25,193 nt of DNA from a virus (lineage: Duplodnaviria > Caudoviricetes). Made by a program: the position numbers and the translations under genes. Shown one piece after another: positions 5,108 to 24,728 of the stretch; the first letter of the stretch is position 1, and every line of letters starts with the position of its first letter. The notes below the pieces were generated by a model. That model saw only the letters and a program-made list of their open reading frames with translations, was not told the origin of the DNA and did no database searches. The stretch spans positions 1 to 25,193 of IMG/VR virus record IMGVR_UViG_3300005326_000121. One strand, written 5' to 3'.

Positions 5108-6674
5108 GGGGAAACCCCGGTGAATCGGTGAATCGGTGAATCGGTGAATCGGGAAGCGCCTCCCTTCTTGCCGTGTGGCGCCCGTACATCTCGGCCGCGA
5201 CCGTCGCCCGCTGGATCACGTCGAGCATCGCGCGCTCGTCCAAAATTTGCCCGAAGGCGTCGGCCAGGCGGTCCGCTAGATCGTCCGGCGATGCGGATGC
5301 CTCGATTGCCGCCACGATCATCCGCATGGAGGCATCCATGGCGGAGACGCCCTCCGGCAGGACGTCCGCGACCAGGCGCTCCAGGGCCTCCTGATCGGAA
5401 TCGAAGCGCCCTTCCGAAAACTCGGCAGCCGGCAGGGCATCGCTTCGCGCCTTCGCGTCTTCGCGTGAATCGCCCTGCCCGATGGTCCGCTCCCCCTCCT
5501 TTGCGAGCGGGAGCCCGTAAGTCGTCTCAAAGTAGGTTTCCGGCACGCGCCGCTTAAAATCCAGATCGCCCAGAAGGATCTTGTCCCGCCCGGCCAGGGC
5601 CAAAAGATCCCGCTCCGGCTCGGTTCTCCTCCACACGCTCGGATATCCCCCGCGCGGCTGAGGGCCGAAGTTCAGGTCCACGATCCAGCGAACCAAGGTG
5701 CGGTTCAAGACCTCGCACTGATCGTCCGCGTCGGCCGCGACGATGGTTTGAAGCACCCGCTCGTGCACGTTTCCAAGGCTTTGAGATCCCCGCTCCCCCT
5801 GATCGGAGGTCAAGGTCTGCCCCAGAATGATCTTGGCTATGCAGCCGTCGAAGTAGCTGCAGGCCTTTTCGTAGGCGCCGTCTCCCGCGCGCTTCGCCTC
5901 GAGAAGCTCGATCGCCGCGGCGCTCGATATGGCGATCCCCGTCTTTCTCCTGACGTTTGAAACTATCTCGAGCAGGAGATCCTTGTCCTCCGGCGGCGCC
6001 CCCGGCGGGTATTTTCCGACCGGAACGGGCTCCCCGAAGTCCTCGAGGAAGCTCATCCAGAACTTGAGGCCGCATTTTTTGAACCATACCGGCCAGTAGA
6101 GCTGATGGCCGAGCCCCCGGCCGTAGGGGTTGCTGTCGTGCCCTCCGTAGCTCCAGAGAACGAATTTTTTATCGGGAACGATTTCGCCGTCCCACAGGTT
6201 GGACGGGGTAAGAAGCCTCAAATTCCCCTTCGGGTCGAATACGAACCGCCCCGGCCTCCTTCCCCGAAACTCGCGTATCCAGATATCCCCCCCGGATGCC
6301 TCCCACATGACCTCAACCGGCTTGTATCCGGTAATTACCGCCTGGCAGAGATCCCGGCAGAGCCTGTCGAAGTTGGCGGAGGCGAGCACGGCCTTGACGA
6401 AATCGGCGATTTTCGCGTCCGCCCGCTTCTCCGTGGCCGGGTCGCACTGCCATTCGCAGGCCTGAAGCGCAAGCGTTCTCGTCTGGTGCATGGCGAACAC
6501 CTGCGCATCGCGGCTAATCTCCTCGTAGATCCTGACTCCCCGCCCCGCGCTCTCCTCCCTCAGGACCGCGTCCGGGTTTTCGAGGCGAGAAAGCCAGCCG
6601 GAGAAGATATCGATATCCTTTTCCAGCGCGGCTACTTCGCCTGCAGGGGGCCGTTTTGCGGAATCGTCTCTCAT
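5100..6674 (-). CDS. Mu gp29-like portal protein (DUF935)
   Basis: NPYGRGLGHQLYWPVWFK, FGEPVPVGKYPPGA, IAKIILGQTLTS, GSQSLGNVHERV. Confidence 0.93.
   Translation of the reverse strand: MRDDSAKRPPAGEVAALEKDIDIFSGWLSRLENPDAVLREESAGRGVRIYEEISRDAQVFAMHQTRTLALQACEWQCDPATEKRADAKIADFVKAVLASANFDRLCRDLCQAVITGYKPVEVMWEASGGDIWIREFRGRRPGRFVFDPKGNLRLLTPSNLWDGEIVPDKKFVLWSYGGHDSNPYGRGLGHQLYWPVWFKKCGLKFWMSFLEDFGEPVPVGKYPPGAPPEDKDLLLEIVSNVRRKTGIAISSAAAIELLEAKRAGDGAYEKACSYFDGCIAKIILGQTLTSDQGERGSQSLGNVHERVLQTIVAADADDQCEVLNRTLVRWIVDLNFGPQPRGGYPSVWRRTEPERDLLALAGRDKILLGDLDFKRRVPETYFETTYGLPLAKEGERTIGQGDSREDAKARSDALPAAEFSEGRFDSDQEALERLVADVLPEGVSAMDASMRMIVAAIEASASPDDLADRLADAFGQILDERAMLDVIQRATVAAEMYGRHTARREALPDSPIHRFTDSPGFPHA
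5118..5152. repeat. Tandem octamer repeat (CGGTGAAT)x4 plus CGG in the 3' end of the portal gene
   Basis: Direct reading: cggtgaat cggtgaat cggtgaat cggtgaat cgg. Confidence 0.95.
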
Positions 6675-6680
6675 GGAGGC

Positions 6681-8099
6681 CTACCTTAAAAAACGCTCTA
6701 AGGCCGTCGAGGCCCTATCCACGCCGCTCGAGCGGTACTCGATTCTCGCCGGCGGCGAGGCGGCCGCGTGAAGCGCAAGGGCAAGCGCCCAGAAGCGATC
6801 TGAATGTCCGTTCGGTCCCCGGTCGGCGTCGAACCGGATGTTTCCGGCGGCCGTCGTGGTCTTTTTGATCGCCCGAAGATCGGACCTGATGGCGTTGCTC
6901 TGCGGGATCTTGATGTTTTGATCCTCGAAGGCGGCGCGAAGCGGATAGGCCAGGGCCTCCTTTACCGGCCCCGTGAAGCGCACGGGCTCGACCTTGTAGC
7001 CGTAGCGCTCGACGGCCCGCTCGGCGAGCTGCATGCCGAGCCCCGTAGCATCGATACAGCAGCGCCTGAGGGAGCGAAGCTCAAGAAGGCCGTAGAGCAC
7101 CGCCTCCTGCTCGCTAAAGGATTTGCCCTGCATCTCGACAACCTTGCGGGTAAAAAAGCGCCCGTTTATGCGCTCGATGGCCCAATCGACCGTAAGATCC
7201 CTGTTCCGTCCGACATCGACTCCGAGATAGAGCTCACCGGGCGCGCGGCCGTCAGGCCCGCGTCCATCGGCTCCCATCTCCCACTCATCCCCCGGCGCGT
7301 ACTCGCATTTGGCGATCTGGTCGTAGGTCAGAAACGCCCCCTCGTCGTCCGCCGGAACGCACATATACTCCTGGGCGAACTGCTCGGAATCGGCGCACCC
7401 TGACCGGATGAAGTCGAAATAATCCGCCTCGTCCATCTCCTGAATGGGGGAATCCGCCGGGATCTTCGACTGGAGCTTGTATAAAAAGCCCTGATCGAGC
7501 GCGTCCTGAAGCGTCACCCTGTGGAGGGAAAACCCCTTGGGGTTTCCCTTGTGCGTTATTTCAGTCACCAGCTCGTTAAAAAAATTCGCAGATCCCCGGT
7601 GGGTGGAGACGATCTCGAGCTGCCCGCCCCAGGTAATGCCGGGGTAGGCAATCGAGTAGAGCTTCCTCGGATCGGGGTGCAGGGCGAATTCATCGAGGAC
7701 CCGGCCTCCCCTTTTTCCCGCCTGGGCGTCCGGGTTTGAGCTCATCGAGTGGATGCGCCGCTCGTTTGCAAACTGGAGGACAAAGGCGGATATTCTCTTC
7801 TCCGGATCGATTACCTGGAGCCCGAGGGATTCGGCGGCGGCGTTCAGGAGCTTTGCGAACATCACGCAGTCCTCCAGGAAAAGCCGCGCCTGAATTTCGT
7901 CGCGCGACGATACCCACTGATCGAATCTGGCCTCTCTGGGCGCCGTTCTGTCCACGCAGGCGCAGGCCGAGGCCCAGGAGAGGCCGATCTGCCTCGATTT
8001 TTCCATGAGCTTCAGGCGCGATGCATCGTCTATCCACCGGTTCTGATACGGCAGGAAGGTGCGCCGCGGCTCGGGAGGAATGATTTTTGCTCGGCCCAT
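6681..8099 (-). CDS. Terminase large subunit (Mu gp28-like)
   Basis: MEKSRQIGLSW (Walker A-like), VLDEFA (Walker B), nuclease motifs LGVDVGR and HSDRFWALALA. Confidence 0.93.
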   Translation of the reverse strand: MGRAKIIPPEPRRTFLPYQNRWIDDASRLKLMEKSRQIGLSWASACACVDRTAPREARFDQWVSSRDEIQARLFLEDCVMFAKLLNAAAESLGLQVIDPEKRISAFVLQFANERRIHSMSSNPDAQAGKRGGRVLDEFALHPDPRKLYSIAYPGITWGGQLEIVSTHRGSANFFNELVTEITHKGNPKGFSLHRVTLQDALDQGFLYKLQSKIPADSPIQEMDEADYFDFIRSGCADSEQFAQEYMCVPADDEGAFLTYDQIAKCEYAPGDEWEMGADGRGPDGRAPGELYLGVDVGRNRDLTVDWAIERINGRFFTRKVVEMQGKSFSEQEAVLYGLLELRSLRRCCIDATGLGMQLAERAVERYGYKVEPVRFTGPVKEALAYPLRAAFEDQNIKIPQSNAIRSDLRAIKKTTTAAGNIRFDADRGPNGHSDRFWALALALHAAASPPARIEYRSSGVDRASTALERFLR

Positions 8100-9841: not shown

Positions 9842-9922
9842 CTACAGCGCTTCTTTATGGGGGTGGCGGAACGATTGAGATGTGGTAAATATAACCGTCA
9901 TCCAATACGGAAGGAGATGCTC

Positions 9923-10339
9923 ATGGGTGTTGCGGCGGTCGAGGGCGCTTTGGCTTTCGGACAATTTGCCTCGGAGCTTCAAAGGGTGCTGCGCGGCCTG
10001 GCCGGAGGATGGCCAGCCCTTCTGCCGGCCGCGCTCCATCTGGCGCGCATGGAGCGGGGAAGCCGCCTGACCCTTGCAAAGGTGAGGAGCGCCATGGCGC
10101 TCTGCGCGGAGCTCTGCCACGAAGGAGCCTGCCTTGGCAGGCTTTTGGAGCACGCCGCCTTGATCCGGGATCTCCACGCGGAGATATACGGCCGCATGGC
10201 GGCGTTTCCCCTTGGATTTCTGTTCAGAAAACGGGTCGAGCTCTCGCTCCATGAATGGGACAATCTGGTGGAGGACTGCGCCGTGGCCTCCGATCCCGAA
10301 ATCCGTGAAATGCTCATCGAGCTGGCCGGCCGGATGTGA
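9923..10339 (+). CDS. Putative antitoxin (138 aa, helical, family not recognised)
   Basis: AAGGAG RBS; TGATG overlap with downstream RelE-like toxin gene. Confidence 0.65.
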   Translation: MGVAAVEGALAFGQFASELQRVLRGLAGGWPALLPAALHLARMERGSRLTLAKVRSAMALCAELCHEGACLGRLLEHAALIRDLHAEIYGRMAAFPLGFLFRKRVELSLHEWDNLVEDCAVASDPEIREMLIELAGRM

Positions 10340-10692
10340 TGGCCTGCACCATCGAGCGCTCATCGGCATACGAGATCCATCTTCGCGATCTGCTCAAGAC
10401 CTATCCCCGGAGCCGCTCCACCATCGAATCGCTTATCTCAGGGCTTGCCGATCAGCCCGAGCAGGGAGATGTGTATCCGGGATTCGGCCCGGCGCAGGTC
10501 CGCAAGGTGCGTATCGCCCTGCCCGAATATCGCCTGGGACAGAGCTCCGGAGTGCGCCTCCTCTATCTTTTCAAACCGCAATCCGGCAAGATTCTGCTTC
10601 TGGCGATATACCGCAAGGGCGCAATCAAGGCGGAGCACGAAGTGATCCGCCTTATCAAAAAAGCGCTCAAGGAAGAGCTCGGGAAGAATTGA
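10339..10692 (+). CDS. RelE/HigB-family type II toxin
   Basis: LADQPEQGDVYPG..VRKVRI...GQSSGVRLLY...ILLLAIYRKG resembles the HigB-2/RelE pattern. Confidence 0.8.
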   Translation: MACTIERSSAYEIHLRDLLKTYPRSRSTIESLISGLADQPEQGDVYPGFGPAQVRKVRIALPEYRLGQSSGVRLLYLFKPQSGKILLLAIYRKGAIKAEHEVIRLIKKALKEELGKN

Positions 10693-10811: not shown

Positions 10812-10902
10812 ACTCAACGCCCCAAAATCAGCGGCGCGGCCTGCGGTCTCCGGGGGAGAACCACAGGCTGTCTCCGCGTCCGCTGCATTTTGCTGGTTAG
10901 AC
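10812..10902 (-). other. Integron attC site (91 bp)
   Basis: Minus strand: GTCTAAC CAGC AAAAT[G]CAGCGG[A]CGCGG...CCGCG CCGCTG ATTTT GGGGC GTTGAGT; R''/L''/L'/R' layout with two extrahelical bases, 5 nt after a stop codon. Confidence 0.85.
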
Positions 10903-10907
10903 GGATA

Positions 10908-11213
10908 CTATAGAATCAGGCTTTCGCCCTCTTTGAACACCTTGAGACTCTTTTTGTACCGGAAGACCGTCACCACCGTGCACGTGGCCAGGTCCACCAC
11001 GAAGATGGACGTCGGCCCCTTGCCGGGAGGCACCGCCGCCACAAGGTTTTCCCTGGCCTCGGTGATGCGCCCCGAAAGCGCCCGCTTGATGAACCGATCC
11101 TCGTGGAAGGTCTCGGTCTTGAGGCCGTAAATCTCCTTCAGGCGGATCACCGCGTAGCGCGAGAGCTTTACCGCCTCGCAGTAGGTGGCGACCGTCTGTC
11201 CTTTGAGGTTCAT
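10908..11213 (-). CDS. Hypothetical protein, weak DUF4258/RelE-like pattern
   Basis: VKLSRYAVIRLKE...IFVVDLATCTVVTVF; ATGA-coupled to upstream gene. Confidence 0.6.
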   Translation of the reverse strand: MNLKGQTVATYCEAVKLSRYAVIRLKEIYGLKTETFHEDRFIKRALSGRITEARENLVAAVPPGKGPTSIFVVDLATCTVVTVFRYKKSLKVFKEGESLIL

Positions 11214-11488
11214 GGCGCATCTCCCGTGAGGGCTTCATAGGCTTCGTCCACGGCTTCCCGGACGATGCCCAGAATCAAGGCGAGGCCGTCCGCCTCCCGG
11301 TTGGTAAGCGGAACCTCCATGGACATTTCGGGGCCTACGGTCGGAGCCCACTGAAGCACCGAGTGCCGAAGAAAGGCCAGCATGCCGTCCGCCGCCATGA
11401 GCGCGTCTCCGGGGTGACTTGAGCCGGTGATCTGCTCCATAAGAGAGCCCGGCTTGAGCTTCGGTACGGGGCAGGGGTTAGTTGACAT
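11210..11488 (-). CDS. Hypothetical protein downstream of antirepressor
   Basis: 92 aa; AAGGA RBS; overlaps both neighbours. Confidence 0.65.
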   Translation of the reverse strand: MSTNPCPVPKLKPGSLMEQITGSSHPGDALMAADGMLAFLRHSVLQWAPTVGPEMSMEVPLTNREADGLALILGIVREAVDEAYEALTGDAP

Positions 11489-12170
11489 GATTGTCCTTCC
11501 TTGAAAAGAGAGCAGGAAGGTTCTCCGTCATGCGGCGTATTCGGGCATTGGCCGGACCGTGATCGGGGAAAAATAGTTTGAAAGGCTTCATTTCATGCTC
11601 AAGCCGCTTTGCCTGCTCCACGGTAAGACCCACTGCTCCGGCCGCCTCCGCCTGATAAAGCCCTAAGTAACGGAAATTGCAATACCGGGTGAAATCCTCG
11701 GAAGAGAGGCCGAATCGACCCAGTAAGGCATTGATGCCAAACCCAAGGCTGAGGCCCGAGGGTGGAGATAGGGGAAGCTGGATGGGCTTGCCCTCAGGCA
11801 GGGCTGCCGTGATAGCCTGCTTTAATTCCCTCACATGCCCAGGTAGCCTAGCAAGCCACACGCGCAACTCCTTGGCCGCAGGGGATTGACCGAACATGGC
11901 GAGGAGGTAGGCACCCGTTTCATCGAAAACCCGATGGGGCCTGGCGTGGCCATCTCCTTGGGCCCTCATGGTGAGGGTGCGGGTGTGAGGCTCAAGCTCT
12001 TCTTTATTTCGTGCATAAAGATTCTGCACAGCCTTGGTAGGGTCGGCAAACCCAAGGGCCATGCCAAGATCCACTCCCGGAACGTAGTCGCGCCCCTCAA
12101 TATGGACAACGCGAACCGGGACGCCGTTGAAATGATGGATGCTAATGGTGAAGTCCTTGTTCTTTTCCAT
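11478..12170 (-). CDS. Bro-N domain phage antirepressor
   Basis: FNGVPVRVVHIEGRDYVPGVDLGMALGF...VFDETGAYLLAMFGQSPAAKELRVWL. Confidence 0.85.
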   Translation of the reverse strand: MEKNKDFTISIHHFNGVPVRVVHIEGRDYVPGVDLGMALGFADPTKAVQNLYARNKEELEPHTRTLTMRAQGDGHARPHRVFDETGAYLLAMFGQSPAAKELRVWLARLPGHVRELKQAITAALPEGKPIQLPLSPPSGLSLGFGINALLGRFGLSSEDFTRYCNFRYLGLYQAEAAGAVGLTVEQAKRLEHEMKPFKLFFPDHGPANARIRRMTENLPALFSRKDNHVN

Positions 12171-12223
12171 GTCTTGTCTCCATTTTATTCAAGCTGTCCG
12201 GAGCCCCCCGCAGAAAACAAAAA

Positions 12224-12389
12224 TCCCGAAGACTTGCTTGCACCAAAATGGAAGTGCCCCCGTCCTTGCGGATGCGGGGAGTCTCCGGGATCATAGTTCC
12301 GGCCTGAAATAAAAAAGGCCACTGACGGGGGCAACCGCCATTTTGTTGCAAGCCCCATCAGCCTACGGGATGCCCGGCAGCGATGTCAA
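12224..12389 (-). promoter_or_regulatory. Promoter plus structured leader of the antirepressor operon (c4/ash-like antisense pairing)
   Basis: TTGACA-18 nt-TAGGCT (12389-12360); long inverted repeat 12236-12264/12324-12353; second pair 12224-12234/12280-12290; T-run after GGCC. Confidence 0.6.
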
Positions 12390-12407
12390 ACGGTTTTTAC
12401 GGAATGA

Positions 12408-12731
12408 TCAGTGAATCCGGTGCAGCACATCCCGGCAGGGATTACGCCTGAATTTGTCCGGGATGCGCTCGGAGGCGGCTTCGAGCTCATCCATTGTCAT
12501 GCCGAGCCCCTTGCAGAGGGTTTCCGCGCTGTAGCAGGGCTCGCCGTTCTCGTCGAAGTAATCGGGCTTGACGTCCGGGAAAAACATCCTGAAGCCTGCT
12601 GCCATCTTCTCCCTGATCTCGGGAGGCCCGTTCTCCATGCAGTATTGCAGGGCATCCAGCCCGGCCTCGCTCTCAAGCCCCTCGCGCTCGATAACCGCCA
12701 TAGCTTCCTGCAAGGACGAAAACTCTGTCAT
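12408..12731 (-). CDS. Hypothetical protein with putative DNA-binding motif
   Basis: GGAGG RBS; FDENGEPCYSAETLCKGLGMTMDEL resembles wHTH/antirepressor N-domain. Confidence 0.7.
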   Translation of the reverse strand: MTEFSSLQEAMAVIEREGLESEAGLDALQYCMENGPPEIREKMAAGFRMFFPDVKPDYFDENGEPCYSAETLCKGLGMTMDELEAASERIPDKFRRNPCRDVLHRIH

Positions 12732-12798
12732 GACTACCCCTCCCTATGAACATGCAATTTGCGCTTTTTGACAAACCGGCACGGACTGCCGGTGATCC

Positions 12799-12907
12799 GT
12801 CTAACGCAAGATTAAGCAGCGGCGCCGAAATACCATGGACTGCCGCTGACACCACCGACTTTCACTCGCCCACGGATTGCGCCGTCTGCTTCAATCTCTG
12901 GTTAGCG
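12799..12907 (-). other. Integron attC site (109 bp)
   Basis: Minus strand: CGCTAAC CAGAG ATT[G]AAGCAG[A]CGGCGC...GCGCCG CTG CTTAAT CTTGC GTTAGAC; the ORF stop codon lies within R''. Confidence 0.88.
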
Positions 12908-13081
12908 TCTGTGGATATAGTACGGCATCAAAAACGGACTTAGCCCGGCCAAGCCAAAGAGTGCACCCAAGACCTCTCTCTCCACCTGGCGTTTACTCGG
13001 CTTCCTCCTCTTGGTCCTGCCGGCGACGATAGCCTGAGCCTTTCGCTCTTCCGCTGAGCCTCTTCTTTTGGCTTCTCCCAT
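12902..13081 (-). CDS. 59-aa basic cassette-encoded protein (MGEAKRRG..., hydrophobic C-terminus); absent from ORF track
   Basis: MGEAKRRGSAEERKAQAIVAGRTKRRKPSKRQVEREVLGALFGLAGLSPFLMPYYIHRR*; ATG 15 nt after GTTAGCG, TAA inside attC R''. Confidence 0.7.
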   Translation of the reverse strand: MGEAKRRGSAEERKAQAIVAGRTKRRKPSKRQVEREVLGALFGLAGLSPFLMPYYIHRR

Positions 13082-13096
13082 CTCTCACTTCCCTTC

Positions 13097-13245
13097 CGCT
13101 AACAAGGATTAGACGGCTCAAGGCCGTTTACCCAATAATTGCACCATGCGCATCTCCTACACCTCGTTCATCGACATCTCGTTCATGGCTGTTATGTTCC
13201 ACGTGAAACATCAGCCATTTTGTCAACTATCACTATGGGTTAGCT
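13097..13245 (-). other. Degenerate/composite attC-like site heading the cassette array
   Basis: Minus strand AGCTAAC (13245-13239)...hairpin TAAACGGC/GCCGTCTA...ATCCTT GTTAGCG (13103-13097); L boxes poorly conserved. Confidence 0.45.
13195..13210. promoter_or_regulatory. parS-consensus palindrome TGTTCCACGTGAAACA
   Basis: Exact match to the bacterial chromosomal parS consensus TGTTNCACGTGAAACA, flanked by ATGGCTG/CAGCCAT arms. Confidence 0.75.
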
Positions 13246-22944: not shown

Positions 22945-22973
22945 GTTCTACATCCTATAGGATGTCCGGTCAA
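22945..22973 (-). promoter_or_regulatory. Early lytic promoter with a perfect 16-bp palindromic operator in its spacer
   Basis: Minus strand TTGACC-17 nt-TAGAAC; ACATCCTATAGGATGT at 22950-22965; extra half-site GGATGT at 22983-22988. Confidence 0.7.
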
Positions 22974-23480
22974 CAACTTTTTGGATGTATTGTGGGCGAG
23001 CCTCTTTCAGAGAGACTGAAGGTGCTTCGAGTGGCCGCCAATCGCACTCAGGCCCAATTTGCTGCATATATGGGAGTCACCCTTAATACATATCAACGGT
23101 ACGAAAAGGGTGCACAGGTCCCAGGCGCGGACAAGATTGCCGGTCTTAAAAACCACTTAAAAGATGTAAGTCTTTCTTGGCTTTTGGTTGGGATAGGGGA
23201 GATGCTTGAACTGCCACTGGGTACTTCGTATACCCAAGAGGCAGAAGAAGACCCCGAAATCGCAGAGCTGCTCATGCGCGCGCGCGAGGTCCTGAAGAGC
23301 GGCAATCAACTGGCTTTCGACGCCCTGTCCCGGAACATCATGTACTTTGCCCACGCAGTTAAAATCGAGAAGCGCCTGAACGAAATGGAGGCGAGGATGG
23401 CTGCCATGGAGCAGAAGCTCCAGCACATCGAGGAGCCAGTCAAGCCCCTGGGAGAGTCAGAGAAACGAGAGGCAATGTAA
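22962..23480 (+). CDS. XRE-family HTH prophage repressor (alternative start GTG 22992)
   Basis: LSERLKVLR...TQAQFAAYMGVTLNTYQRYEKG...VSLSWLLVGIGEM; C-terminal coiled coil; no S24 peptidase domain. Confidence 0.88.
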   Translation: MSGQQLFGCIVGEPLSERLKVLRVAANRTQAQFAAYMGVTLNTYQRYEKGAQVPGADKIAGLKNHLKDVSLSWLLVGIGEMLELPLGTSYTQEAEEDPEIAELLMRAREVLKSGNQLAFDALSRNIMYFAHAVKIEKRLNEMEARMAAMEQKLQHIEEPVKPLGESEKREAM

Positions 23481-24066: not shown

Positions 24067-24257
24067 CAATTCTTCTACCGGATCGCGCGAAAAACATGGC
24101 GATGACCGCTTTTCGGGCTTAATTCTTCTGACACACTCGTGGGCTTGGAGCCAAGCAGGACCAACCAGCCTAAGCCCACATTATCACCACAAAAGTCCTG
24201 CTTTCGTCGCCCTTAATCAAGGCACCTCAATTCTTCTCAAGGATAGTGAACCCCACA
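24067..24257 (-). other. Prophage left end with three putative transposase-binding sites
   Basis: AATTCTTCT at 24068, 24121 and 24229; 24067-24096 and 24228-24257 share 19/30 nt; terminal CA at 24256-24257. Confidence 0.75.
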
Positions 24258-24728
24258 CCGGGGATGCTGGTTTCGTCGGGCGGCCTCGGGACCATGGGCT
24301 TCGGGCTTCCGGCGGCGGTCGGAGCGACGATGGGACGCCGCGATCAGCCCGTCATTCTGGTAACGGGCGACGGCAGCATCCAGATGACAATTCAGGAGCT
24401 GGCCACCATGCGGGAGCAGGAGCTTCCGATAAAGATCTTCATTTTCAACAATCAGGCGCTCGGCATGGTCAGGCAGCTTCAGGATGTGTATTGCGAGGGC
24501 CGCAACATTGCGACACTCTTCAAGTTTCATCCGGATTTCGCCCATCTTGCCGGAGCCTACGGGATGCCTGGATACACGATCGACAAGGAGGCCGATTTTG
24601 AAGCGGCCCTTCCCGGTATCCTCGCCACTCCGGGAGCCGTTCTGGTCAACTGCCTGATTCCCACGGCGGAAAACGTCTCCCCCATGGTGCTTGCGGGAGC
24701 CGGTATCCACGAGGCCGTTGATGTTTGA
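24258..24728 (+). pseudogene. ilvB: 3' remnant of acetolactate synthase large subunit (TPP-binding domain) interrupted by the prophage
   Basis: SSGGLGTMGFGLPAAVGA, VTGDGSIQMTIQELAT, FNNQALGMVRQLQ; similarity stops at 24258 and an in-frame stop lies at 24171. Confidence 0.88.

Follow-up and report, generated by a model that had tools for sequence, protein, structure and literature searches.

To our knowledge, how integron cassettes form is an open question, and the source of a cassette gene is usually untraceable. The available text of PMC8352920 mentions cassette genesis without a mechanism. Here we analyzed a locus that raises this question, a cassette of about 2 kb that lies between two attC sites of a Mu-like prophage and carries an antirepressor-type module. 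The preliminary description of this DNA proposed a possible recombinational switch between lysis and lysogeny, in which IntI would delete or move the module and change the inducibility of the prophage; alternatively, the module would have inserted into a simpler cassette, or phage genes would have been captured into a new one. The window analyzed is the entire record IMGVR_UViG_3300005326_000121 (25,193 bases, linear, about 58% complete). Its features are collected in Table 1, and the loci compared with it carry numbers beginning with L.

Results

A two-site attC array without integrase in a Mu-like prophage

A domain search detected a DDE transposase, a TnpB ATPase, Gam, two GemA proteins, a terminase, a Mu portal and gpF in the window, which place it among the Mu-like prophages. 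The Mu-type genes are on the minus strand and the repressor gene is on the plus strand. As first described, this repressor lacks a RecA-cleavable domain, with HTH domains only and no peptidase domain found. Beyond the prophage end, a host gene for acetolactate synthase is represented at 24246-24728 by its C-terminal part only, which is consistent with this gene being the insertion target of the prophage.

The cassette array has the early genes on one side and the predicted genes for lysis and terminase on the other. A strict attC scan of the window gave exactly two sites, both on the minus strand, when 10 shuffled windows gave 2 matches in total. Both sites exhibited R''/R' cores, L boxes and a single-strand hairpin with one extrahelical base in the L box, and their bottom-strand folding z values were -2.6 and -4.2. 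The attC-bounded cassette proposed initially (cassette 2, 12804-10818, 1,987 bp) is thus confirmed by two strict-scan sites, by their folds and by cognate ends. Its R' (12799-12805) is perfectly complementary to its R'' (10896-10902), and the match extends beyond the 7 nt first noticed, to 11 nt, the longest among the 12 cassettes measured. Non-cognate end pairs from the same 12 cassettes reached at least 7 nt in 29/132 cases and at least 10 nt in 0/132. A 7-nt match alone is therefore weak evidence and an 11-nt match strong evidence, so that both ends of cassette 2 derive from one cassette.

Cassette 1 lies upstream, and the entry site of the array consists of an R core and a degenerate L-like box, at which the promoter scan lists no minus-strand promoter. 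The segment 13097-13246 was rejected as a third attC since it does not fold as one (z -1.5). As the R' of attC2 finds no matching R'' further on, the array ends at attC2. With two attC sites, the minimum given in the available part of PMC9892861, and an integrase absent from the record, the array is a CALIN; no TIGR02249 match to an integron integrase was found anywhere in the approximately 58%-complete record, and the array flanks are phage genes.

All attC sites were searched by scripted scans, and 13 of them gave no useful MAFFT alignment. The strict scan misses several sites visible by eye. A relaxed scan recovers 13 of 14 by-eye sites, with a null level of 0.6 matches per 2.2 kb at L-box score 5.

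Two further elements were observed outside the cassettes. Beyond attC2, a convergent two-gene unit is possibly a toxin-antitoxin pair, judging from its weak domain matches; it is reversed, as often for such units in integron arrays, and has no attC of its own. It was rejected as a third cassette for want of a matching R''. Approximately 100 nt upstream of the array entry site, a palindrome that we take to be of parS type was present in the window's own record and in none of 111 other loci scanned.

Table 1. Coordinates of the array, its cargo and the other features of the window.
Feature	Position	Strand	Remarks
attC1	12799..12907	-	strict scan and hairpin fold
attC2	10812..10902	-	strict scan and hairpin fold; R' = GTTGAGT
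Cassette 1	13102-12805	-	298 bp, upstream of cassette 2
59-aa ORF of cassette 1	12902..13081	-	small phage early-gene family; phrog_35223 weak match; stop codon inside R''
Array entry site (attI-like or attG-type; R' core of cassette 1)	13097..13115	-	7-nt complement to attC1 R''; not a full attC
107-aa ORF	12408..12731	-	no Pfam family
Module promoter, predicted sigma-70-type	12361..12389	-	TTGACA-17-TAGGCT, 12389-12361, read by eye
C4/sRNA-Xcc1-type antisense leader, about 190 nt	12168..12360	-	target a1 12345-12338; a' 12251-12244; a2 12187-12180
230-aa Bro-N protein, C-terminal HTH-like domain	11478..12170	-	Bro-N above Pfam cut-off, E 1.4e-8
92-aa ORF	11210..11488	-	overlaps Bro-N stop
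101-aa ORF	10908..11213	-	ATGA overlap with 92-aa ORF; ends 5 nt before R''
Convergent two-gene unit (140 aa, 118 aa), outside cassette	9917..10692	+	weak Gp49/ParE matches, E 0.013 and 0.085
16-bp palindrome	13195..13210	+	exact match to parS consensus
Prophage repressor	22962..23480	+	HTH_3 only, without detected peptidase domain

The cassette carries four ORFs and an antirepressor-type gene

The four ORFs described between R' and R'' were all located (Table 1). The PHROG ant families align to residues 6-129 only of the Bro-N protein, and the 230-aa Bro-N/HTH protein is predicted to be an antirepressor or a DNA-binding regulator. The antirepressor-type module of the preliminary description is therefore supported by a Bro-N domain above the Pfam cut-off, its role as an antirepressor being a prediction. 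A complex prediction of the repressor with the Bro-N protein gave a score of 0.00, which is no evidence either way.

Against a profile of the small ORFs of eight relatives, the 92-aa ORF scored 6.8 bits, and 0/500 shuffles scored that high; it weakly resembles the small ORF in the matching slot of these relatives. For the 101-aa ORF, a homolog was found neither in the relatives nor by the word-based protein search. A fold comparison gave a DUF4258/DUF3781-like fold for its product (TM 0.54-0.62, below our bar for naming), which we retain as a lead only, and its single-sequence structure model was too poor for searching (pLDDT 45). A 113-aa ORF (10897-11238), which overlaps the 101-aa ORF in another frame, was judged a shadow and rejected as a real gene. 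The 5-nt repeat TCCGT is present just after the 107-aa stop and again abutting R''; Mu transposition was rejected as its origin since the insert lacks TG...CA ends.

Searches with the cargo proteins gave few matches. Using the 107-aa, Bro-N and 101-aa queries, a word-based search among 5.8 billion proteins recovered no sequences other than those of the window itself. The 107-aa, 212-aa and Bro-N proteins matched nothing in viral scans, and a two-row 107-aa alignment and the L014 Bro-N protein gave only records already in the set.

The leader belongs to a family of C4-type antisense elements

A search with the terminase gave 11 viral and 13 genome loci, among which L014 has, in the corresponding position, a Bro-N gene preceded by a similar leader. 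A leader pattern built from the window and L014 then gave 9 viral and 16 metagenome matches; it covered the viral and metagenome sets rather than the GTDB genomes, and chromosomal arrays were sampled only through metagenome contigs. We left out L045 (identical to the window) and L039 and L043 (chance matches in non-phage genes), dropped the repeats L032, L034, L037, L041, L042, L044, L047 and L049, and counted L029 as L014. The leader family comprises 14 distinct phage records besides the window, each with at least one phage marker at the locus (terminase, TnpB, GemA, Gam, phrog_2161 or endolysin).

A folded core is common to the 15 leaders, and its 8-nt a' loop pairs with two targets, a1 near the 5' end of the leader and a2 over the ribosome-binding site. 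At six variable positions, we observed cognate pairing in 85/90 cases for a1:a' and 82/90 for a2:a', compared to shuffled means of 57 and 54; 0/20,000 shuffles were as high, the shuffle ignoring relatedness. The a' loops present 12 different specificity hexamers among the 15 leaders, from which a covariance model, R1, was built. An antisense loop complementary to both an upstream target and the ribosome-binding site, and covarying with them across copies, is the layout of a C4-type RNA.

No Rfam family (C4, c4-2, c4-a1b1, sRNA-Xcc1) was above its cut-off for the window leader, which had chance-level matches only, nor for five relatives, and a blastn search of the leader against annotated phages and plasmids gave no match. 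The window leader is below detection for RF02221 and, in the reverse direction, R1 scores sRNA-Xcc1 loci at 18.5 bits at best. Judged from their sequences and predicted folds, the 15 leaders are an uncatalogued family of C4-type antisense RNAs. The structured leader of the preliminary description is confirmed. The internal promoter was read by eye and was not listed by the consensus promoter scan (12389-12361); its -35 box occupies the same position in 15/15 leaders. Since the leader is of C4 type and covaries, control is likely at the RNA level, and the antirepressor module likely carries its own switch, operated by antisense RNA rather than by recombination.

The leader is also retained where the antirepressor-type gene is missing (L040, 1333-1533) or split in two frames (L033, 5103-5912). 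Two other records, L038 and L046, are truncated.

Related phages carry the module at the same locus without a downstream attC

In the relatives, the gene downstream of the leader encodes a Bro-N, ORF6N or AntA protein, in many cases with an HTH at its C-terminus, and a small ORF comes next. The relatives swap antirepressor-type N-terminal domains, and the window Bro-N is 21-28% identical to theirs. In the relaxed scan of the 14 relatives, no downstream attC with an L-box score of at least 6 was found. An attC after the module was observed in 0/9 relatives whose downstream sequence extends over 1.7 kb or more, and in neither L015 nor L141; five score-5 downstream matches in L025, L030 and L031 were discounted as null level. 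Upstream of the module, attC sites were present in 2/14 relatives (L014 and L040), two sites each. The preliminary description had itself stated that homologous blocks never flanked by attC, together with a lack of excision under an active IntI, would refute its proposal, and the first of these two is what the nine relatives show in our sample.

In L015, a true sRNA-Xcc1 (66 bits) precedes a Rha gene in the corresponding slot. At 6466-7314 of the same locus, a small zinc-finger-like ORF and the lysis genes flank a 282-aa gene, whose product has the appearance, from its sequence, of a dCTP deaminase extended by a membrane tail.

Members of the 107-aa family occur on chromosomes and on a plasmid as well as in phages, namely in the Mu-like prophages L033 and L141 and in further phage regions. 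It was detected in 30 of 401 genomes, and an attC directly after the ORF was found in 0/25 of the loci fetched (25 of 31 matches). The phylum samples of genomes were centred on an unrelated terminase match. In L033, the homolog is 35% identical and lies 1.1 kb before the leader, attC being absent. L114 and L141 represent one Mu-like prophage with GemA, Mor, a 69-aa member of the 107-aa family (hhalign probability 97.5), promoter, leader, Bro-N gene, coupled small ORF and endolysin-like gene. Its leader includes the complement of its own ribosome-binding region. The 107-family ORF stands directly before the promoter in L141, so that the gene order is that of cassette 2, without any attC at the block. 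A conserved chromosomal branch of the family (L117-L137) was observed beside a metallophosphoesterase and a sulfate-symporter-type gene.

The 59-aa family of cassette 1 was found at 30 viral loci. The gene is attC-bounded in 2/30 (L068 and L080) and lies near gemA without attC in 11/30, many of them close kin. L068 is a Mu-like phage with three cassettes before gemA. No integrase was found in the records L068, L080 and L014, all of which are fragments. Small genes in runs of attC cassettes were observed in phage early regions at L068 3884-4957, L080 2511-5123, L040 63-618 and L014 2-1017; some attC in these runs are decayed or fused, with ORFs running into them. A strong single attC was also present in a Verrucomicrobiae genome (L009, 7145-7243, minus strand), about 3 kb upstream of a Mu-type terminase.

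At sRNA-Xcc1 loci, a strict attC within 1.5 kb was found in 0/30 fetched (of 78 matches in 151 genomes); the relaxed scan of both strands gave matches in 12/30, which we treat as noise.

No excision joint is present in contigs

Two runs (X1, which may be the source, and X2) contain the region as contigs, and one X1 contig is unbroken over both R' sites. The 12805/10817 excision joint, which the preliminary description proposed to look for, was not seen in either contig set, contigs being a form of data that drops rare forms; cover gaps in run X2 were uninformative. Variants of attC1 adjoin different cassettes in further X1 contigs; integrons with attC1-type sites therefore exist in this sample.

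Discussion

We consider it probable that the cargo of cassette 2 is the block that related phages carry at this locus, enclosed between the two ends of one cassette, that a host IntI could delete it, and that the antisense RNA of the leader, not recombination, likely controls it. The last alternative of the preliminary description, phage genes captured into a new cassette, is accordingly the best fit, since the block sits without attC in relatives. At the level of sequence, the resident phage origin of the leader, the Bro-N gene and the 107-aa gene is established. The 101-aa ORF, with no homolog in the relatives, could be the original cassette gene.

For the functioning of the module, the internal promoter would make the leader RNA, whose a' loop would pair over the Bro-N ribosome-binding site. 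From the covariation, and by analogy with the C4 RNA acting on P1 ant, we infer that this pairing keeps the gene of the putative antirepressor silent in the lysogen. For the origin of the cassette, attC cassettes enter the variable end of the early region in these phages, as the window, L014, L040 and L068 show, and here the enclosed DNA would be the phage's own block. The ends may have been gained when a new cassette formed and re-entered at the array site, or when the block recombined into a small cassette already present. Recombination of attC1 with attC2 would then leave a module-free prophage and release a circle that expresses itself and could join other arrays. As a close relative lacking attC2 was not found, we infer this order of events from distant relatives.

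Insertion outside integrons bears on the same question. Cassettes enter GWT (attG) sites and can excise with neighbouring DNA, as reported in the available part of Loot et al. (10.1101/2022.09.11.507474). An attG insertion followed by imprecise excision could explain an array without intI and with a non-matching last R'. However, this route alone does not yield two cognate ends around resident genes, as in the window.

A first alternative is that the unit was made elsewhere, circulates among phages and chromosomal integrons, and entered at the array site, replacing a native module or in its stead. The cognate 11-nt ends would suggest such a passage through a circle, other cassettes of this sample have attC1-type sites beside them, and sRNA-Xcc1 with symE is the most widespread Xanthomonas cassette in the accessible part of 10.1101/2025.06.18.660453. 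However, the 14 true leader matches are all in phage context at the locus and none in an intI array, and a strict attC was found within 1.5 kb at none of the 30 sRNA-Xcc1 loci, nor an attC directly after the ORF at any of the 25 fetched 107-family loci, so that we regard import as unlikely.

The second, insertion of a 1.5-kb module into a one-gene cassette (the 107-aa or the 101-aa ORF with attC2), was also among the initial proposals and is weakened by L141, where a 107-family gene already adjoins the module without attC, and by L033, where one lies near it. The presence of TCCGT both behind the 107-aa stop and next to R'' is what such an event would leave, although 5 nt can repeat by chance. 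The 101-aa ORF stops 5 nt before R'', as is typical of cassette genes, but it is coupled to the 92-aa ORF through the ATGA overlap. Simpler one-gene cassettes of the 107-aa or 101-aa ORF, whose search had been suggested, were not found, and we hold this insertion to be quite improbable.

Finally, a selected switch, in which an SOS-induced host IntI excises the unit and alters the inducibility of a prophage with an uncleavable repressor, fits the intact appearance of both attC sites, the repressor without peptidase domain and the frequent SOS control of intI genes (in the available text of PMC8876359), but seems to us very improbable given that the downstream attC is not conserved (0/9 relatives, plus L015 and L141), that intI is absent from the record and the joint from the contigs, and that the antirepressor-type gene, missing in L040 and split in L033, is not always needed. 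Deletion by IntI, as first proposed, would be feasible, whereas moving the unit would leave its expression unchanged: with its own promoter it is indifferent to array position (in the available text of PMC8876359), so the switch would be one-way and only loss would count, which under SOS would make induction weaker.

The enclosure of the phage's own block can be compared with several known systems. In the phage CALINs of Qi et al. (2023, PMC9892861), as far as the available text goes, clusters of attC without integrase are borne by phages, and five of six tested phage attC recombined with IntI1. The window resembles them in its two attC in a phage, its lack of intI and its several ORFs between adjacent attC. 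Their cargo, in the same text, consists of methyltransferases, toxin-antitoxin genes and unknown ORFs, antirepressors not being named there; in contrast, the window cargo is traceable to the regulatory block of a phage family at the same locus.

The P4 CI RNA has a seqA/B/C layout. The window shares with it, and with the P1/P7 immI operon (C4, icd, ant), a promoter, an antisense-loop RNA and targets upstream and at the ribosome-binding site, followed in the window by an antirepressor-type gene; it differs from them by the absence of an Rfam match to C4, c4-2, c4-a1b1 or sRNA-Xcc1, by its Bro-N and HTH gene, by its Mu-like phage and by its location inside a cassette. C4 RNA controls ant in P1, according to the accessible parts of PMC8201110 and 10.1101/2020.03.17.996009. 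The available part of 10.1101/2025.06.18.660453 describes a Xanthomonas integron cassette in which a C4-type RNA has a transcription unit of its own. This sRNA-Xcc1 (RF02221) cassette is like the window in carrying a C4-type RNA, and RF02221 occupies the slot in L015; unlike the window, the Xanthomonas cassette carries symE, is reversed and lies in a chromosomal integron, and the window leader is not detected by its model.

There are thus precedents for CALINs in phages, for promoter-bearing cassettes and for a cassette-borne C4-type RNA, the last from the part of 10.1101/2025.06.18.660453 at hand. What is new here is a traceable before/after pair, and an uncatalogued C4-type RNA family, which shows 12 specificity variants across 15 phage records. 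The literature searched by title listings, where subscription journals are thinly covered, gave no paper on cassettes that carry antirepressors.

The uncassetted form, with the same gene order and locus in related phages, provides the before/after pair, and a promoter, an RNA leader and an operon in one cassette are hard to reconcile with the copying of a single promoterless mRNA. A bolder reading, tentative and in our view rather doubtful, is that the locus is a snapshot of cassette birth, a phage anti-immunity operon turned whole into an IntI-mobile cassette, and that Mu-like phages with attC-interleaved early genes feed new cassettes, including self-regulated antirepressor units, to the integron pool. 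If this were true, antirepressor cassettes in the integron pool could trigger or block related prophages.
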